41,487 nucleotides of DNA from Candidatus Woesearchaeota archaeon. GTDB lineage: Archaea > Nanobdellota > Nanobdellia > SCGC-AAA011-G17 > UBA489. The stretch lies in the NCBI GenBank assembly GCA_018658955.1, contig JABIPM010000040.1, positions 1-41,487 on the forward strand, in the 5' to 3' direction. A program made the position numbers and the translations under genes. The notes beneath the pieces were generated by a model. It searched no databases and had not been told where the DNA came from. It worked only from the letters and a program-made list of their open reading frames with translations. This document shows, piece by piece, positions 9,809 to 29,728 of this stretch (position 1 is its first letter; the number at the start of each line of letters is the position of its first letter).

Positions 9809-10252
9809 ATGTTATGCCCATACTGTCAAAATCAAGATACCAAAGTAATTGATAGTAGAGAAACAGAAAACGAAGAGGCGACAAGAAGACGCAGAGAATG
9901 TCTATTGTGTAAAAAAAGATTCACTACGTATGAAAGAGTTGAAACAGATTTAAGAGTAATAAAAAAAGATGGAACAGTAACTAATTATCAAAGAGAAAAA
10001 TTAAAATCTGGAATATTAAGGGCTTGCGAAAAAAGACCTGTAAAAACAGAAACAATTCACAATACAGTTAATAAAATTGAAGCAGAATTAAGATCAAAAC
10101 AAAAAACAGACATCCCTTCAAAATTAATAGGAGAATTAGCAATGAAGGAATTAAAGAAACTTGACAAAATTGCATACATCAGATTCGCATCAGTCTACAA
10201 AGACTTTGAAGATATCGGTTCATTTGAAGATGAACTAAAAAAACTAAAATAA
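9809..10252 (+). CDS. nrdR: Transcriptional repressor NrdR (zinc ribbon + ATP-cone)
   Basis: 147 aa. MLCPYCQNQDTKVIDSRETENEEATRRRRECLLCKKRFTTYERVE is the canonical NrdR zinc ribbon. A C-terminal ATP-cone follows (..IAYIRFASVYKDFED..). Confidence 0.9.
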   Translation: MLCPYCQNQDTKVIDSRETENEEATRRRRECLLCKKRFTTYERVETDLRVIKKDGTVTNYQREKLKSGILRACEKRPVKTETIHNTVNKIEAELRSKQKTDIPSKLIGELAMKELKKLDKIAYIRFASVYKDFEDIGSFEDELKKLK

Positions 10253-17465: not shown

Positions 17466-18553
17466 ATACAAAAACAAAATATAACACTTTAATCTTGACA
17501 AGAGGGAGAGATCTAACTCCTGATTCTACAGAGTTAGCATTAGCATATGAAGCAACAAATAGAAATCATAAAGTTTCTTTTCAAAAACCAGAAAATTTCT
17601 ACGTTAAAAATGGAAAATTATTTGGAATTACTCGCAGGCCAAATGCAGAGACTATAGACTCCTACGAGGCATTTGGACAATACATCCAAAATGAAACTTT
17701 CATGAAACGAGAAAATCTCCCATTAGAAGAATTTGATATTATTTTTTCAAGAGTAGCATATAGAAATCCGGATGAAAAAAGAGAATTTGAAAATATGTGT
17801 ATTTATTTATCTTCATTAGAATCTTTAAATCCTAAAGTTACAATGGTAAATTCTCCATTAGGTATGTTGATGGCGGGAGCAAAAATTTACGAAACACTTA
17901 ATCTGAAAACTTACATGCCAGAAACACACATCACTAAAGATTCTAAACGTCTTGAAACTTTGATGAAGGAAGCGGCAAGAGACAACCAAGGAATTATTGG
18001 AAAACCTATTGATGGGATGGGTGGAAGCGGAGTTATTGAAATTCCTCCTGCTGGTTACAGAGGATTAAGGACTTTAGCAGAAGTACTAGTTGAACCTTTA
18101 GAAAGTACTTCTTCAATTCCTGCAATTATTCAATCAAAATTAGAAGGTGTAGATCGTAGAATTTTAATAATGGGCGAAGAAATTCTTGGAGCATATAAAA
18201 GAGTCCCTGCTGAAGAAGAGATAAGGGCAAATATTCATTTAGGCGGAACGGTTCAAGCTTATGAGTTACAAGATATCGATAGAATGATTGTAAGTTATGT
18301 TGCAGAAAAAATCAAAAAAGATGGATTATATTTTTGTGGATTAGACATTATGGGTCCAGAAGAGGACGGAACACTTGAGAATACTAGGATGCTAGAACTA
18401 AATGTAAGGTGCCCAGGTTCAATTAGAAGTTTAGAGTCTTTAGCTGAATCCTATCATGAAAAAACAGAAATTAGAAATGCAGCAGCAAGCAAGATAATAA
18501 GGTATGCTGAAAATCTACATGAAAATAAGCTGTCTTTATTAGCTCAAGAGTAA
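17462..18553 (+). CDS. GshB-like ATP-grasp ligase (glutathione synthetase / RimK superfamily)
   Basis: 363 aa. GKPIDGMGGSGVIEI, RILIMGEEILGAYKRVPAEEEIRANIHLGGTVQAYEL and YFCGLDIMG...LELNVRCPGSIRSLE parallel the remembered E. coli GshB blocks (..HRGNLAAGG.., ..GLDIIG..TEINVTSP..). The start overlaps the upstream stop (ATGA). Confidence 0.7.
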   Translation: MNTKTKYNTLILTRGRDLTPDSTELALAYEATNRNHKVSFQKPENFYVKNGKLFGITRRPNAETIDSYEAFGQYIQNETFMKRENLPLEEFDIIFSRVAYRNPDEKREFENMCIYLSSLESLNPKVTMVNSPLGMLMAGAKIYETLNLKTYMPETHITKDSKRLETLMKEAARDNQGIIGKPIDGMGGSGVIEIPPAGYRGLRTLAEVLVEPLESTSSIPAIIQSKLEGVDRRILIMGEEILGAYKRVPAEEEIRANIHLGGTVQAYELQDIDRMIVSYVAEKIKKDGLYFCGLDIMGPEEDGTLENTRMLELNVRCPGSIRSLESLAESYHEKTEIRNAAASKIIRYAENLHENKLSLLAQE

Positions 18554-18562
18554 TCCACTAAT

Positions 18563-18570
18563 TTTATAAA
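18563..18570 (+). promoter_or_regulatory. TATA box for tRNA-Leu
   Basis: tttataaa ends 25 nt upstream of tRNA position 1. The same geometry is seen at the other tRNA genes here. Confidence 0.5.
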
Positions 18571-18594
18571 CCGTTCAAGAGCCTAAATCTTTGC

Positions 18595-18680
18595 GTGGGT
18601 GTCCCATAGTCTGGTCAATTGGGCAGGACTTAAGATCCTGTGGCTTAGTGCCTACGAAGGTTCGAATCCTTCCACCCACA
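18595..18680 (+). tRNA. tRNA-Leu (anticodon UAA), long variable arm
   Basis: Manual fold. Acceptor GTGGGTG/CACCCAC, anticodon stem CAGGA/TCCTG with loop CTTAAGA, a 15-nt variable arm (GGC..GCC stem), T arm GAAGG-TTCGAAT-CCTTC, discriminator A. Confidence 0.9.
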
Positions 18681-18684
18681 GTTT

Positions 18685-19014
18685 TTACCTATTATCGCCA
18701 GTACCGTTAACTTTGTTCCTCTTAATCCTACTAGTTATCTTTTCCAGATTAATTTTAGCAACTTCATCTAACTCAAAGTTTAATTCACTACATAAATTTG
18801 AAAGATACCATAGAACATCTCCTAATTCTTTTCCGATAGCCTCTCTGGCCTCCGGACTAACCTTTCCCTTACAGTCTCTAAATATTTTTTTTACTTTTTC
18901 AGCAACTTCTCCAGATTCTCCACAAAGACCCATCGTAGGATATGAAAGATTTTTCCCCACGTTTGGATAACTGGCAGTGCTTCTGGCAAGTTTTTGATAT
19001 CTGTTTAGTCTCAT
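18685..19014 (-). CDS. MazG-like nucleoside triphosphate pyrophosphohydrolase (small all-alpha NTP-PPase)
   Basis: 109 aa. ..MGLCGESGEVAEKVKKIFRD... and ...IGKELGDVLWYLSNLCSELNFELDEVAKINLEKI give the EXXE...E(L)GD(V)LWY pattern of MazG-type enzymes. Confidence 0.75.
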   Translation of the reverse strand: MRLNRYQKLARSTASYPNVGKNLSYPTMGLCGESGEVAEKVKKIFRDCKGKVSPEAREAIGKELGDVLWYLSNLCSELNFELDEVAKINLEKITSRIKRNKVNGTGDNR

Positions 19015-19081
19015 ATGAGTAATTTCATTATTTAATTAATAAGAATTTATCAATCTTAACCTAGATAATTCCTCCCAATAC

Positions 19082-19090
19082 TTTTAAAAA
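19082..19090 (+). promoter_or_regulatory. TATA box for tRNA-Thr(GGU)
   Basis: ttttaaaaa is centred about 30 nt upstream of tRNA position 1 (19116). Confidence 0.5.
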
Positions 19091-19115
19091 AGAAAATCAT
19101 CATGAATAAAACAGC

Positions 19116-19187
19116 GCCACCGTAGCTCAGTGGTAGAGCACTACATTGGTAATGTAGAGGTCGCGAGTTCAAGTCTCGTCGGTGGCT
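19116..19187 (+). tRNA. tRNA-Thr (anticodon GGU)
   Basis: Acceptor GCCACCG/CGGTGGC, D arm GCTC-AGTGGTA-GAGC, anticodon stem CTACA/TGTAG with loop TTGGTAA, T arm GCGAG-TTCAAGT-CTCGT, discriminator T. Confidence 0.9.
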
Positions 19188-19193
19188 TCTTAT

Positions 19194-19211
19194 CGTACTT
19201 ACCGTACTTAC
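19194..19211. repeat. Perfect tandem 9-mer (cgtacttac x2) immediately 3' of tRNA-Thr(GGU)
   Basis: Read directly from the sequence: cgtacttac at 19194-19202 and again at 19203-19211. Confidence 0.9.
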
Positions 19212-19271
19212 TCCTCGTCCGCCAAAACTATATCAAACAGTTCTAACTTATTTCTCCAAGGAGGAAACCCC

Positions 19272-19376
19272 ATGAAGCAGCCAAAAAGGTCAAAAACCAA
19301 GATGGACCAGTATATCAAAAAAACGCATGATAACTGGTCTGTATTAGAAGATTTTGGAATATATTTTTTGCAGTAG
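19272..19376 (+). CDS. Possible 34-aa micro-ORF with a strong Shine-Dalgarno
   Basis: GGAGG at 19260-19264 lies 7 nt upstream of the ATG. The product is MKQPKRSKTKMDQYIKKTHDNWSVLEDFGIYFLQ. The longer track ORF (19182) would begin inside the tRNA and is unlikely. Confidence 0.25.
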   Translation: MKQPKRSKTKMDQYIKKTHDNWSVLEDFGIYFLQ

Positions 19377-19450
19377 TATATATCCAAATTTTTTCTTTTT
19401 TCTTTTTAACAACATTTAAAAGCAAGTACAGCCAATAAACTAACATATTA

Positions 19451-19759
19451 ATGGAGGCTTACACAATGAGCAAAGATCTAAAAGACATAATCTCAGAAGA
19501 AAATTACGGAACATCAAGTAATCTGGAACGAGAAAAATATAATGGAACTCAATTACCTAGGCCTTCAAATTACACCGAAGATTTAAAATTTCAAGCAGAT
19601 TTACAAGATGGAATTACTGAATTTCTAAATGATATTGGTTATGATCCATTAACAGATGATGTACAATACCAAGACACTTTATCACCAAATGATGAATTAG
19701 ACATCTTGCACGGAAAAACCTATCATATAGAATCCGGAAGTAAAAGTACTAATTATTAA
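19451..19759 (+). CDS. Hypothetical acidic 102-aa protein
   Basis: ORF rich in D/E/Y/T, convergent with the sigma-like gene (stops 12 nt apart). No family was recognised. Confidence 0.45.
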   Translation: MEAYTMSKDLKDIISEENYGTSSNLEREKYNGTQLPRPSNYTEDLKFQADLQDGITEFLNDIGYDPLTDDVQYQDTLSPNDELDILHGKTYHIESGSKSTNY

Positions 19760-19770
19760 CTTGAATTACC

Positions 19771-20361
19771 TCAAAGGTAATTCTTTCTTTCCATTCTTTC
19801 TCTTATATTTTTCATAGTTATCGAAACGTATGTGCGAGACTTATCCAACACCTCAGCAATTTCTATATTTTTATAACCTAAAAGTTTCATATCTACTGAC
19901 AGTAGTTTGGAATAATTTAATCCATAAACTAAATCATCTAATGTTTCTTTGGCACAAACCATATCAAATCCCGAGTGGGCGCGCTTATCTTCAAACCGAT
20001 AATCTCCATTTTCAGAATTAAATTCCTCAGAGTTTATATTTGTAGAATATGTTTGAGGTTTGTTTTCTAATCTCATATATTTTCTTAAAACATTTCTGAT
20101 TCCAAATTGCATATGCATGCTTGCAAATTTTCTAAAATTTAGTCCACTATATTCCCTGTATTTACGTGTAGCCATAAGTAATCCCTCAATGGCACTATCA
20201 TAAAATTCATCCTCTGAAATTTTATAGAATTTTCGACCATATTTTTGAGAAATATTTTCTGCTAAATTCAATAAATAATCTTCATCATTTTCTATTCTTT
20301 CTCTATTTTCCAATGTAAGGATCTTATCCTTTATTCTTTCCATACTTGCCTTAGACAACAA
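19771..20361 (-). CDS. Sigma-70-family-like protein (region 2 + region 4 HTH)
   Basis: 196 aa. DSAIEGLLMATRKYREYSGLNFRKFASMHMQFGIRNVLRKY parallels sigma region 2 (D..QEG..GL..A...F....G..FSTYA..WIRQ.I.R). LSVDMKLLGYKNIEIAEVLDKSRTYVSITMKNIRERMERK parallels the region 4 HTH. Confidence 0.6.
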   Translation of the reverse strand: MLSKASMERIKDKILTLENRERIENDEDYLLNLAENISQKYGRKFYKISEDEFYDSAIEGLLMATRKYREYSGLNFRKFASMHMQFGIRNVLRKYMRLENKPQTYSTNINSEEFNSENGDYRFEDKRAHSGFDMVCAKETLDDLVYGLNYSKLLSVDMKLLGYKNIEIAEVLDKSRTYVSITMKNIRERMERKNYL

Positions 20362-20422
20362 CTCTTAATATTATTATTGGTTTTTCAGATACTCTTAAAA
20401 ATCCAAATTTCAAAGTAAAACT

Positions 20423-20911
20423 ATGAAAAATTTCAAAGAAAACTACAAATTATTACAAGAAAAATACAGTTTACCTTCATATGAAGAATTAGATAAAAAC
20501 TTCGAAATCTTAAATTCAGAAGAAAAAGTAGAATTATCATTCCCTTTAGCATTAGTAAGAAGAAGAATGTGCGAGAAACTATCTTGGATATCTTCAGGAA
20601 TTCAAACAATCATTCAACCGAATCCATCTTCACTAGTTAGTATAGAAGAGTCTTCATTTTTCACAAAAGAAGAAAAGAAGGAAGAGTTAATCAAACTATT
20701 AAAAGAATTAATGCATCTAGTAAGATCTTCAGTAGACTTAGATATAGAAAATTCAGAAGAAAAAGATGCAATTAATATTAATGAAACTTTCAAAAAATGG
20801 ACTGAACTAAAACCTAAAATAAAAGAATTTAGTAAAAAGATGAAAGATGGTTGGAAAAAAGAAACAAAAGTTACTAAAAAACCAAAAACCACTCACAATT
20901 ACTTGGGTTAG
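20423..20911 (+). CDS. Hypothetical K/E-rich 162-aa protein, first gene of the pilus-like locus
   Basis: ORF 61 nt from the divergent sigma-like gene, followed on the same strand by the pilin genes. No family was recognised. Confidence 0.5.
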   Translation: MKNFKENYKLLQEKYSLPSYEELDKNFEILNSEEKVELSFPLALVRRRMCEKLSWISSGIQTIIQPNPSSLVSIEESSFFTKEEKKEELIKLLKELMHLVRSSVDLDIENSEEKDAININETFKKWTELKPKIKEFSKKMKDGWKKETKVTKKPKTTHNYLG

Positions 20912-20948
20912 CCAAAACCTTAATAAATTTAGATTCGACCTTATAATT

Positions 20949-21548
20949 ATGAAAAAGGGACAGGTGTATCTTCTAGCAGTAATTATTATGGGATTTCTAA
21001 TCTACACAATGTTAACTCCCGTAAACTTTCTAAAAACTTCAGAGATAGAAGACGATTTTCAAGAAATTTCTAAAAATTATCAATTAGAAAGTGCAAAACT
21101 TCTAAATGAATTATTAAACACTCAAAACGTAAATCAAAATTTTGTAGAAGAAAGATTTCTTAATTTCACTGTTGCATTTACTTCATACTCCAAATCAAAG
21201 AATCCTAACTTTGGATTAGTTTATGCATTTCCATTTAACAACAAAGTTTTTTTAGGAAATTATGCAGATTCACCCCTAAATTATTCATCTACTGATCAAA
21301 TAGTGGGATGTCTTTCGGATGTAACTGCTTCAATATCTTTTGCGGGATTAAACATATCTTCTCCAAATATAGATGTGGATAACTACAGGCAATGTATAAA
21401 TTCAACAACTTACCCTCAAGAGGATAAACTAATATTAACTTTAGACGGTTTAGAATATCCTTTTACTTTAACATCCTCAAGTTCAAACTTAGTAATAATC
21501 AACAAAGAAAGCATTGAAGGAAATACTAAAATATTCATAAGTGAATAA
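20949..21548 (+). CDS. Prepilin-like protein (class III signal peptide)
   Basis: The internal ATG of track ORF 20847 gives MKKG|QVYLLAVIIMGFLIYTML. That is a short basic N-terminus, Gly, then a hydrophobic helix. Confidence 0.6.
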   Translation: MKKGQVYLLAVIIMGFLIYTMLTPVNFLKTSEIEDDFQEISKNYQLESAKLLNELLNTQNVNQNFVEERFLNFTVAFTSYSKSKNPNFGLVYAFPFNNKVFLGNYADSPLNYSSTDQIVGCLSDVTASISFAGLNISSPNIDVDNYRQCINSTTYPQEDKLILTLDGLEYPFTLTSSSSNLVIINKESIEGNTKIFISE

Positions 21549-21583
21549 AAAAACTAATAAACCAAATAAATCACTATAATAAC

Positions 21584-22015
21584 ATGCAAAATAACAAAAG
21601 AGGAATCTCGCCAGTAATCAGTTGGATATTAATAATTGGTTTTACCATGACTTTGGCAGGTTTTTCAATGACCTGGATGAGAGAAACAGCATCAACAACA
21701 TCTGAAAAAATGGTAGATAATATAGGCACCGATTTAGAATGTGGAGATGTTTCAATAAATGCATATAACACTTCAGGAAGCTGTGCAAAGATAAATATCA
21801 CTAACAAGGGATTTTTTACAATTACAGGAGTAAAGTTTAGATCAGGAAAGGGATTAAGCAATATTACCCAAACAATAATTCCAACAACTGAAATAGAAAT
21901 AAGTACTGGGGTAACTAATTTTTTACCAAATAATGAACTCGGAATAATTCCTGAAATATCTTATAAAGATAAAACACTAGTTTGTATAAATAAAGAGATT
22001 AGAATAAAATGTTAA
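21584..22015 (+). CDS. Archaeal type IV pilin / flagellin-N-terminal-domain protein
   Basis: MQNNKRG|ISPVISWILIIGFTMTLAGF matches the archaeal pilin N-terminal motif ([KR]G-[IV]SP[VL]I). Confidence 0.8.
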   Translation: MQNNKRGISPVISWILIIGFTMTLAGFSMTWMRETASTTSEKMVDNIGTDLECGDVSINAYNTSGSCAKINITNKGFFTITGVKFRSGKGLSNITQTIIPTTEIEISTGVTNFLPNNELGIIPEISYKDKTLVCINKEIRIKC

Positions 22016-28735: not shown

Positions 28736-29728
28736 ATGGCAAGGAGGGATTTTATCATCACAGTTACATTAATTCTTGCAGCAGCTATGCTAGCAAATAA
28801 TTTAGATTCAGATTTAACAGGAATGCAAACTACGACGGGTAAAGGGCCAGATGCATTAGAGGGGCATAATGAATGTTTCATAGATACCTCACCCACAGGT
28901 CAAAAGAGTTTTTCTTGTAGGTCAGTTCAAGGACCTGGACAAGATCAATGTAGCTCATATGCAGACTGTGATGCTCAATGGGATTTATGCTGCACTTTAA
29001 CGACCTGTTCACCAGTTCAAGCAGGAACTTGTAAGGGAAGTTCATGCACTGCAAATTCAGATTGTCTAAATATTAAAGATGAAATAATCGTAACTAAAGA
29101 TTGCACAGGCAGAGACACAACAGGAAATAAAGACGCATGTATCTTTATTGGAAAGGGATTAGTTTGCGGAACAAGTTCAGACGAATCAAAGAAGTATTGT
29201 TGTGAATCAGATTCTTCTGGAGGGTGTAGCTGTAGTACAGAAATAAAAAATCCTTGTTCAAAGCAAGAAGACTGTTTGGGTGCAATGTGTTACGCAGAAG
29301 CGGCAGGAGAATCAGCTGCATGTAAAAAAGCAGTATCTTGTGTAATGAAAAATAGAAAAGATAGCGATTTATATCCGGATGATTATTGTGCACTAGCTTC
29401 AGAAGGGGCAGACAATAACAATCAGCCTTTACAATTCAAACCATTTAGGTGTGTTTGTCAAAAAGGGAGTAATCCTAATGGAAATAATAGATATTGCGAT
29501 GCCTGTGAGGGGACAATCACAAATTCCTTAGAAAAAAAAGCAGCAGATCAATGTAAAGAAATAGCTGATCAATTGGCTACAAATCCTAGTTTCTGTAATG
29601 GTTACAGCGCAGACTCATTTTATGCAGGAAACTCAAGTGGAAACTGTGATTCTGTTTGTGGTGAAGGAAAGGGAACAAAAGTATCTGCAAAAGGTTGTGA
29701 GGGTCACGTATTTTGTAAGTGTAATTAA
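28736..29728 (+). CDS. Secreted cysteine-rich protein with a SleB-like cell-wall hydrolase (Hydrolase_2-like) signature
   Basis: 330 aa with 34 Cys. The N-terminus MARRDFIITVTLILAAAMLA is a signal peptide with an RR-x-F motif. CYAEAAGESAACKKAVSCVMKNRKDSDLYPDDYC...QFKPF parallels the SleB-family hallmark Y.EARGE...(G)..AV..V..NR....FP...C...QF. G+C is visibly above background. Confidence 0.6.
   Translation: MARRDFIITVTLILAAAMLANNLDSDLTGMQTTTGKGPDALEGHNECFIDTSPTGQKSFSCRSVQGPGQDQCSSYADCDAQWDLCCTLTTCSPVQAGTCKGSSCTANSDCLNIKDEIIVTKDCTGRDTTGNKDACIFIGKGLVCGTSSDESKKYCCESDSSGGCSCSTEIKNPCSKQEDCLGAMCYAEAAGESAACKKAVSCVMKNRKDSDLYPDDYCALASEGADNNNQPLQFKPFRCVCQKGSNPNGNNRYCDACEGTITNSLEKKAADQCKEIADQLATNPSFCNGYSADSFYAGNSSGNCDSVCGEGKGTKVSAKGCEGHVFCKCN

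Follow-up and report, generated by a model that had tools for sequence, protein, structure and literature searches.

Sigma-70 genes are already on record in DPANN archaea. A survey by Castelle et al. (2021; PMC8204110) calls them 'particularly prevalent in Woesearchaeota' and reports that the genomes concerned encode TBP, TFB and TFE, that mis-binning was ruled out, that anti-sigma factors were not found and that the mechanism is unclear. One family of its Table S3, fam00359, is typically 280 amino acids (aa) long, carries the annotation primary sigma and occurs in 39% of 196 Woesearchaeota genomes. Furthermore, a 2025 paper (PMC12647753) reports rpoS-like genes on DPANN viruses. As to the function of archaeal sigma homologs, a literature search brought up no other paper; PMC11606122, considered as a source on archaeal sigma, was set aside because 'Sigma' is used there as a chemical symbol only. 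The present analysis concerns a stretch of 41,487 nucleotides (contig JABIPM010000040.1 of assembly GCA_018658955.1, Candidatus Woesearchaeota archaeon; hereafter the window), in which a gene for a sigma-like protein is encoded on the minus strand (19771..20343), convergent with a gene for a small acidic protein and divergent from a pilus operon.

A preliminary description of this DNA had stressed how unexpected a sigma factor is in an archaeon; in view of the survey (PMC8204110), this surprise is overstated. The sigma-70 homologs of DPANN archaea are already published as a class, and the gene described here is, judging by its sequence, a distinct and rare lineage. The whole of the evidence is best explained, with a probability of about 0.55, by a phage-type minimal sigma that was acquired horizontally and acts as a DNA-binding regulator.

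Sequence and fold of the sigma-like protein

An open reading frame (ORF) is present at 19771..20361 on the minus strand and would encode 196 aa from a TTG start at 20361. The ATG at 20343 is the probable start (19771..20343, 190 aa) and is preferred because the closest homologs (P0001 and P0002) begin with MERI and because the residues upstream are not conserved in G010, a sister marine Woesearchaeales species of the source assembly (G000). The 190-aa protein comprises a sigma-2-like domain that includes a region 2.1-2.3-like block (20065..20319, residues 9-93), delimited by structure and profile matches, a linker of about 40 aa predicted to be disordered (19945..20064, residues 94-133) and a sigma-4-like helix-turn-helix (HTH) domain (19774..19944, residues 134-190), also delimited by profile and structure matches; no sigma-3 domain is part of this layout. 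The region-2-like and region-4-like segments that the preliminary description had read in the ORF were thus both found, in the order given there.

Several lines of evidence indicate that this protein almost certainly belongs, as a divergent member, to the sigma-70 superfamily and has a sigma-2/linker/sigma-4 layout. Indeed, the NCBIfam model TIGR02937 matches residues 40-192 of the 196-aa form with an E-value (E) of 3e-7, over profile positions 16-163 of 165, and the Pfam family GerE matches at E 0.014 (residues 162-194). An exhaustive phmmer search against 1.84 billion representative sequences returned 11 matches only at E ≤ 1e-3, namely close kin, P0004 (201 aa, 32% identity), which is the closest relative outside the kin, P0006 (176 aa, 29% identity) and further proteins of 174-206 aa. 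Three of the latter (P0008, P0009 and P0011) exceed the cut-off of Pfam Sigma70_r2 (PF04542) and score 1e-26 to 1e-30 against the phage sigma family phrog_351, to which P0006 is linked at 1.1e-10. A four-row alignment of the protein's own small family, used as a profile (A2), is aligned by hhalign with these phage-type small sigmas over 169 columns (probability 99.6%, E 8.5e-24), and among solved structures it matches FliA (region 2; 6.9e-8) and WhiG (5.1e-6), while a search of the PDB with the single sequence gave 0 matches at E ≤ 1. In a tblastn search of 50,697 phage records, two Enterocloster phages were matched; the best match is a 187-aa coding sequence of Enterocloster phage CB473P1 (CB473P1_00096; E 8e-5, 25% identity, 89% query coverage), which is annotated as hypothetical. 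The sigma-2 core is the best-conserved block relative to the distant relatives P0004 and P0006 (42% and 32%), and sigma-4 is the best-conserved part between G000 and G010 (86%; 86% identical to P0002).

The predicted fold is in line with this assignment. The AlphaFold2 (AF2) model contains two helical domains (approximately residues 2-93 and 126-186) and, between them, a disordered stretch in which the predicted local distance difference test (pLDDT) is below 50 at residues 94-110 and 112-133. Among the matches listed by Foldseek, every one was a sigma factor or a sigma-RNA polymerase (RNAP) entry. With VIA-align, the N-terminal domain of SigE (sigma-2) is superposed on residues 11-90 with Z 11.2 and a root-mean-square deviation of 1.3 A over 74 aligned residues; sigma-H (3mzy) is superposed on residues 122-190 of the model with Z 9.6 and 2.4 A over 69 aligned residues, and a sigma-28/FlgM complex gives Z 10.0. 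The predicted fold thus matches those of sigma-2 and sigma-4.

Other results weigh against the reading. The Pfam models Sigma70_r2, r4 and r4_2 give no match to the protein at E ≤ 1, and Sigma70_ECF does not match it either; the TIGR02937 score (30.2 bits) is lower than the curated cut-off (42.9), and phrog_351 reaches only E 0.68 when compared directly with the protein. Furthermore, the AF2 model is of middling quality (mean pLDDT 69) and was built from an input alignment that contained true sigmas, and the Z-scores given above lie below the value of about 13 under which, by the aligner's own caveat, matches are common for helical folds. As the curated cut-offs are not reached, membership of the sigma-70 superfamily rests on profile, transitive and structural evidence, and the protein is filed as a divergent homolog. 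The minimal two-domain sigma of the preliminary description hence stands as to homology (TIGR02937, hhalign and fold); it does not reach the thresholds of the curated models.

The protein is rare among relatives of the host. Sigma70_r2 (PF04542) is found above the Pfam cut-off in 104 of the 201 sampled genomes of the order, including six of the eight other genus members; G000 and G010 both lack such a match. With the sigma-like protein itself as query, two of the 201 genomes match. The A2 profile finds five of 401 genomes of the phylum at E ≤ 1e-4, two of them clearly; the three others match weakly (2.4e-7 to 8.5e-5) in frames of 334-623 aa. Likewise, the matches of A2 to the sigma-like ORFs of about 290-600 aa from sampled relatives are weak (E 1.8e-8 to 3e-3; 173 ORFs), and A2 is linked more closely to the phage-type proteins than to these longer Woesearchaeales ORFs.

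The locus and its archaeal host

The source assembly is a Woesearchaeales metagenome-assembled genome (MAG) of 625 kb in 54 contigs, 95% complete, and the window has a G+C content of about 32%. Archaeal or archaeo-eukaryotic markers are encoded in the window: L10e, ABCE1/RLI, a wyosine (Tyw1-type) radical-SAM enzyme, and archaeal-type pilins, ATPase and platform proteins. Furthermore, the RNAP subunit A' of the assembly passes the archaeal model TIGR02390 with 1154.8 bits, and TFB is present. On the basis of these markers, of subunit A' and of TFB, the host is a DPANN archaeon of the order Woesearchaeales. A bacterial-type core RNAP that could serve a sigma was not found in this 95% complete assembly, in which the bacterial rpoC model matches only the archaeal A' locus, below its cut-off; only the archaeal A' passes its model.

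The preliminary description had also raised assembly chimerism. A bacterial or phage fragment wrongly joined to an archaeal contig, or wrongly binned, could be imagined for a gene of bacterial or phage type in a 54-contig MAG; the chance of it is next to nil. Indeed, a syntenic contig of 90 kb in the second species, G010, has the same gene order (GshB-like ligase, tRNA-Leu, MazG, tRNA-Thr, acidic ORF, sigma-like gene, a gene for a 162-aa protein and the pilus genes), with protein identities of 73-96% across the block. In 14 marine or seawater metagenome DNA runs, of which some may have given rise to this very DNA, at least 98% of the words sampled from 19188-20950 are present; contigs from two of these runs span 18000-20810 and 19133-22000 without a single difference. 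In G+C content and codon use, the sigma-like and acidic genes do not stand out from the window either (z -0.27 and +0.58).

The two genes occupy a variable slot in an array that is otherwise conserved. This array, common to all seven genus members examined, is composed of tRNA-Thr(ggt) (predicted at 19116..19187, plus strand, in the window; seen in six of the seven members and not on the short G056 piece), a 34-aa micro-ORF conserved in all seven (19272..19376, plus strand), the slot, and the gene for a 162-aa protein (20423..20911, plus strand) followed by the pilus genes. The 162-aa protein belongs to no Pfam family; its gene precedes those for the pilin, ATPase and platform proteins in all seven members, and the protein is found upstream of pilin genes at 45-83% identity in each of the six others. 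The preliminary description had the sigma-like gene divergent to the first gene of the pilus locus; the neighbour is indeed the first conserved gene of the operon, and its product is not a pilin.

In G000 and G010, the slot contains the acidic ORF and the sigma-like gene. In G037, G131, G056 and G115, it contains ORFs of 119-140 aa that are co-oriented with the pilus operon and have no PHROG family (L012 6793-7152; L014 4959-5381; L015 7479-7877; L016 4006-4383); these four ORFs were not matched in BLAST searches with the acidic or the sigma-like query. In G093, the slot is empty and the micro-ORF directly adjoins the 162-aa gene. The slot is thus a hypervariable cargo site within an otherwise conserved array. 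Since the contents vary while the array is kept, the sigma-like and acidic genes represent an insertion of two genes, specific to this lineage, at a hotspot flanked by tRNA, and the pilus operon, which is kept without the sigma-like gene in all five other genus members examined, does not need the pair. A linkage of orthologs to the pilus genes, also considered in the preliminary description, was found in G000 and G010; these five lack the sigma-like gene at the locus.

The region between the divergent sigma-like and 162-aa genes (20344..20422) measures 79 bp from the likely ATG; the divergent arrangement of the preliminary description is confirmed, and its gap of 61 bp is that from the TTG start. 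Each start codon is preceded, about 25 nt upstream, by an AT-rich TATA-like box, and the sequence is largely conserved in G010, the 60 bp nearest the 162-aa gene being nearly identical. These boxes would fit archaeal TATA-dependent, near-leaderless transcription. Bacterial-type promoters gave no signal in 19000-20700 (7 sites against 9.0 expected from shuffles).

The acidic orphan gene (19466..19759, plus strand) encodes a protein of 97 aa with an isoelectric point (pI) of 4.2, 20 acidic and 8 basic residues. Its start at 19466 is likely, given a GGAGG motif 8 nt upstream and the fact that a further-upstream ATG runs into a stop in G010. The stop codons of this gene and of the sigma-like gene are separated by 11 bp, and a terminator-like hairpin (19763..19783; a 9-pair stem followed by a T-rich tail) lies between and over their 3' ends; the small, very acidic protein that the preliminary description placed opposite the 3' end of the sigma-like gene is therefore real and convergent. 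The acidic ORF is co-inherited with the sigma-like gene and syntenic in G010. Three database relatives only were found, each at least 73% identical and none beyond close kin. It matches no known anti-sigma family in Pfam (FlgM included) or NCBIfam at E ≤ 1, its best PHROG match (E 0.19) is a family of unknown function, and the ESM Atlas returned no usable match. A prediction of the complex between the two proteins, run without controls, scored 0.00 and weighs neither way; the role of partner or anti-factor considered in the preliminary description is a putative one.

Both genes are under relaxed purifying selection, being constrained, if loosely. The sigma-like gene has a dN/dS (the ratio of non-synonymous to synonymous substitution rates) of 0.32 between G000 and G010, the acidic ORF one of 0.44, and the values of seven neighbouring genes lie between 0.04 and 0.25; dS is about 0.4-0.5, and each of the two genes is intact in both species and has the same length in both.

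Other inserts and features were observed around the slot. A MazG-like pyrophosphatase (18685..19014, minus strand; Pfam MazG 9e-12, phrog_229 2.8e-37) with atypical codon use (z -2.6) is encoded between tRNA-Leu and tRNA-Thr in G000 and G010. It was not found in the five other genus members, where the two tRNA genes are adjacent or separated by other inserts, and it looks like a separate phage-derived insertion. In G037, a 241-aa ORF (L012 5093-5818) lies between the same tRNA genes, its 3' end overlapping the predicted tRNA-Thr; two LAGLIDADG-like motifs are visible by eye and it may be a homing endonuclease. The spacer 19188-19465 shows 92-96% nucleotide identity between G000 and G010, and nearby coding genes differ at 30-67% of synonymous sites. 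The micro-ORF in this spacer (19272-19376 in the window; L006 and L012-L016) could represent a leader peptide or, alternatively, an RNA element; apart from the tRNA, a search of Rfam at a lax threshold over 19050-19500 recovered just two matches, both below threshold and attributed to chance. Elsewhere in the window, the gene for an NrdR-type repressor (zinc ribbon and ATP-cone; 9809..10252, plus strand) precedes those for a B12-dependent ribonucleotide reductase and a dUTPase; this repressor represents another bacterial-style transcription regulator in this archaeon. The ORF at 28736-29728 has no Pfam match at E ≤ 0.001.

Origin and possible function

According to the proposed scenario, the ancestor of the two sister marine Woesearchaeales species would have acquired a phage-type sigma gene horizontally, likely from a virus or mobile element, and this gene would have arrived with, or next to, the gene for the 97-aa acidic orphan. 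A horizontal, mobile-element origin is probable, and so are the direction and source of the transfer. This origin fits best because no detectable relatives are nearer than the small sigmas of phage type and because the slot beside tRNA-Thr is lineage-specific; for the same reasons, 'horizontally acquired or virus-derived' is the best fit of the three explanations offered in the preliminary description. The phage-like MazG inserted nearby was also counted toward the acquired status of the gene. On the other side of the balance, no relative was found in the viral contigs searched with A2, P0004 and P0006, and a search around the slot for att-like direct repeats of the tRNA-Thr 3' end gave only short repeats of low identity. 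The window-typical composition and codon use, together with the absence of att repeats, imply that the transfer was not recent. The metagenome contigs yielded a single partial relative (L017), with the N-terminus of P0006; a viral context is not claimed for it, as its 343-aa neighbour is tail-fibre-like by eye and has neither a PHROG nor a phage tblastn match.

In a cell with an archaeal RNAP and TBP/TFB-type initiation only, the sigma-like protein would most likely not be a classical initiation factor. The lack of a bacterial core enzyme makes a regulator acting through the sigma-4 HTH the simplest function: the protein could bind specific DNA sequences and control a small regulon, with the promoter regions on either side of the gene pair as first candidate targets. 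Such a sequence-specific regulatory role is predicted tentatively, at a little under even odds. One further point counts on the negative side: the retention of sigma-2, the best-conserved block relative to distant relatives, is not explained by a plain HTH regulator. Contigs from RNA libraries with 100% identity, one inside the sigma-like gene (20118-20277, 160 nt) and one inside the acidic ORF (19508-19709, 202 nt), are a weak hint of expression, as they may derive from DNA; the parts of the stretch without cover in these runs are not evidence of silence.

The targets could be narrower than a small regulon. By loose analogy with FliA and motility, sigma-4 would bind the shared 79-bp divergent promoter region and switch the 162-aa and pilin genes, and this reading is suggested by the divergent position of the sigma-like gene relative to the first conserved operon gene, by the almost invariant intergenic sequence near the 162-aa gene in G000 and G010, and by FliA and WhiG being the closest solved relatives of A2. 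A dedicated pilus regulator is nevertheless unlikely: the operon and its 162-aa first gene are conserved in all five genus members without the sigma-like gene, unrelated genes fill the slot in those members, and the likeness to FliA is limited to generic region-2 motifs. The repurposed regulator of pilus genes put forward in the preliminary description is accordingly unsupported. It is decidedly unlikely, too, that the gene is a passenger of a decayed mobile element or provirus integrated near tRNA genes, slowly eroding and without a role in the cell. The variable slot beside tRNA-Thr, the phage-like MazG with atypical codons found between the tRNA genes only in G000 and G010, and dN/dS values above those of the seven neighbouring genes are what such a passenger would leave; however, at a dS of about 0.4-0.5 the two species have both genes uninterrupted and without a difference in length, dN/dS is well below 1, sigma-4 is 86% identical between the species, codon use is fully host-like, and no other element genes or repeats were found at the locus.

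The unexplained retention of sigma-2 keeps alive a further reading, in which sigma-2 would dock on the Rpo1N clamp coiled-coil and modulate or redirect initiation alongside TBP, TFB and TFE. A clamp coiled-coil is common to all multisubunit RNAPs, and the Rpo1N site is the counterpart of the beta-prime site that is bound by sigma; to our knowledge, there is no precedent for a sigma homolog acting on an archaeal RNAP. The conservation of sigma-2 in distant relatives would agree with this docking, but it may be purely structural, and an action on the archaeal polymerase is a long shot. The sigma homologs kept in about half of the genomes of the order (the count given above; see also PMC8204110) suggest a use beyond the HTH. 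Extended to the Woesearchaeales sigma homologs in general, with sigma-2 on the Rpo1N clamp, sigma-4 reading DNA and the acidic protein as antagonist, the idea would amount to a bacterial-style promoter-selectivity layer over TBP/TFB, which is a longer shot yet. The sigma-like protein could finally be made for a bacterial partner or prey, into which it would be transferred and in which it would redirect the RNAP, as the sigmas of phages do. Its membership of a phage-type sigma lineage points that way; no secretion signal is evident, although none was sought by a dedicated examination, cultured DPANN have archaea as their known hosts, and we know of no route by which a DPANN archaeon could deliver a cytoplasmic protein to a bacterium, so that this entirely speculative reading has a very remote probability.

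The DNA-binding regulator thus remains the preferred reading. If the protein only binds DNA, the case would be one of ordinary domain reuse; if it truly touches the archaeal polymerase, the textbook divide between bacterial and archaeal initiation would change. The sigma gene and the acidic orphan form a compact two-gene module that is testable in vitro.

Comparison with known sigma systems

The role of sigma-family proteins in cells with TBP and TFB is a question whose mechanism the published survey leaves open (PMC8204110). To this question the locus would add a second, independent route of entry of sigma genes into DPANN archaea, with a phage-type minimal form as opposed to the 280-aa or ECF-like forms.

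The ECF-like sigmas of the same genus (154-171 aa), carried by six of the eight other members, are also small two-domain proteins. They are of a different lineage, since hhalign aligns them with A2 at a probability of 34%, over 43 columns and in the HTH only. Their genes adjoin the gene for methionyl-tRNA synthetase (MetRS) in four genomes and lie between TFB and S8e in two (L051 4780-5295 and L052 4333-4806, in G115 and G186; the other loci are L049, L050, L053 and L054). The position of a bacterial-type sigma gene beside that of the archaeal initiation factor TFB in G115 and G186 is a curious linkage. No ECF-like sigma of this kind was found in G000, G010 or G181. In G000 and G010 the MetRS locus is itself different, and a replacement of the ECF-like gene by the sigma-like gene is not claimed. 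The MetRS of these two species (G000 C4 39289-40389; L061), in a 567-aa frame, is 32-35% identical to that of G037, which suggests a different MetRS type.

FliA and WhiG, of the sigma-28 group (group 3), are the best solved-structure matches of A2, and the small acidic neighbour of about 97 aa parallels their anti-sigma FlgM. In contrast to these factors, the sigma-like protein has no sigma-3 domain, and the acidic ORF matches neither FlgM nor any other Pfam family. Fam00359 (PMC8204110) is likewise a bacterial-type sigma in Woesearchaeota with TBP, TFB and TFE and without a recognised anti-sigma; its members are typically of 280 aa, whereas the protein described here has 190 aa and escapes the Pfam Sigma70 models. 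The closest likeness is to the small sigmas of phages (phrog_351). The sigma-like gene differs from theirs in standing in an archaeal chromosome without a bacterial RNAP, and its product is 24-29% identical to them; yet it shares with them the length class (174-206 aa) and the succession of sigma-2, linker and sigma-4 without sigma-3.

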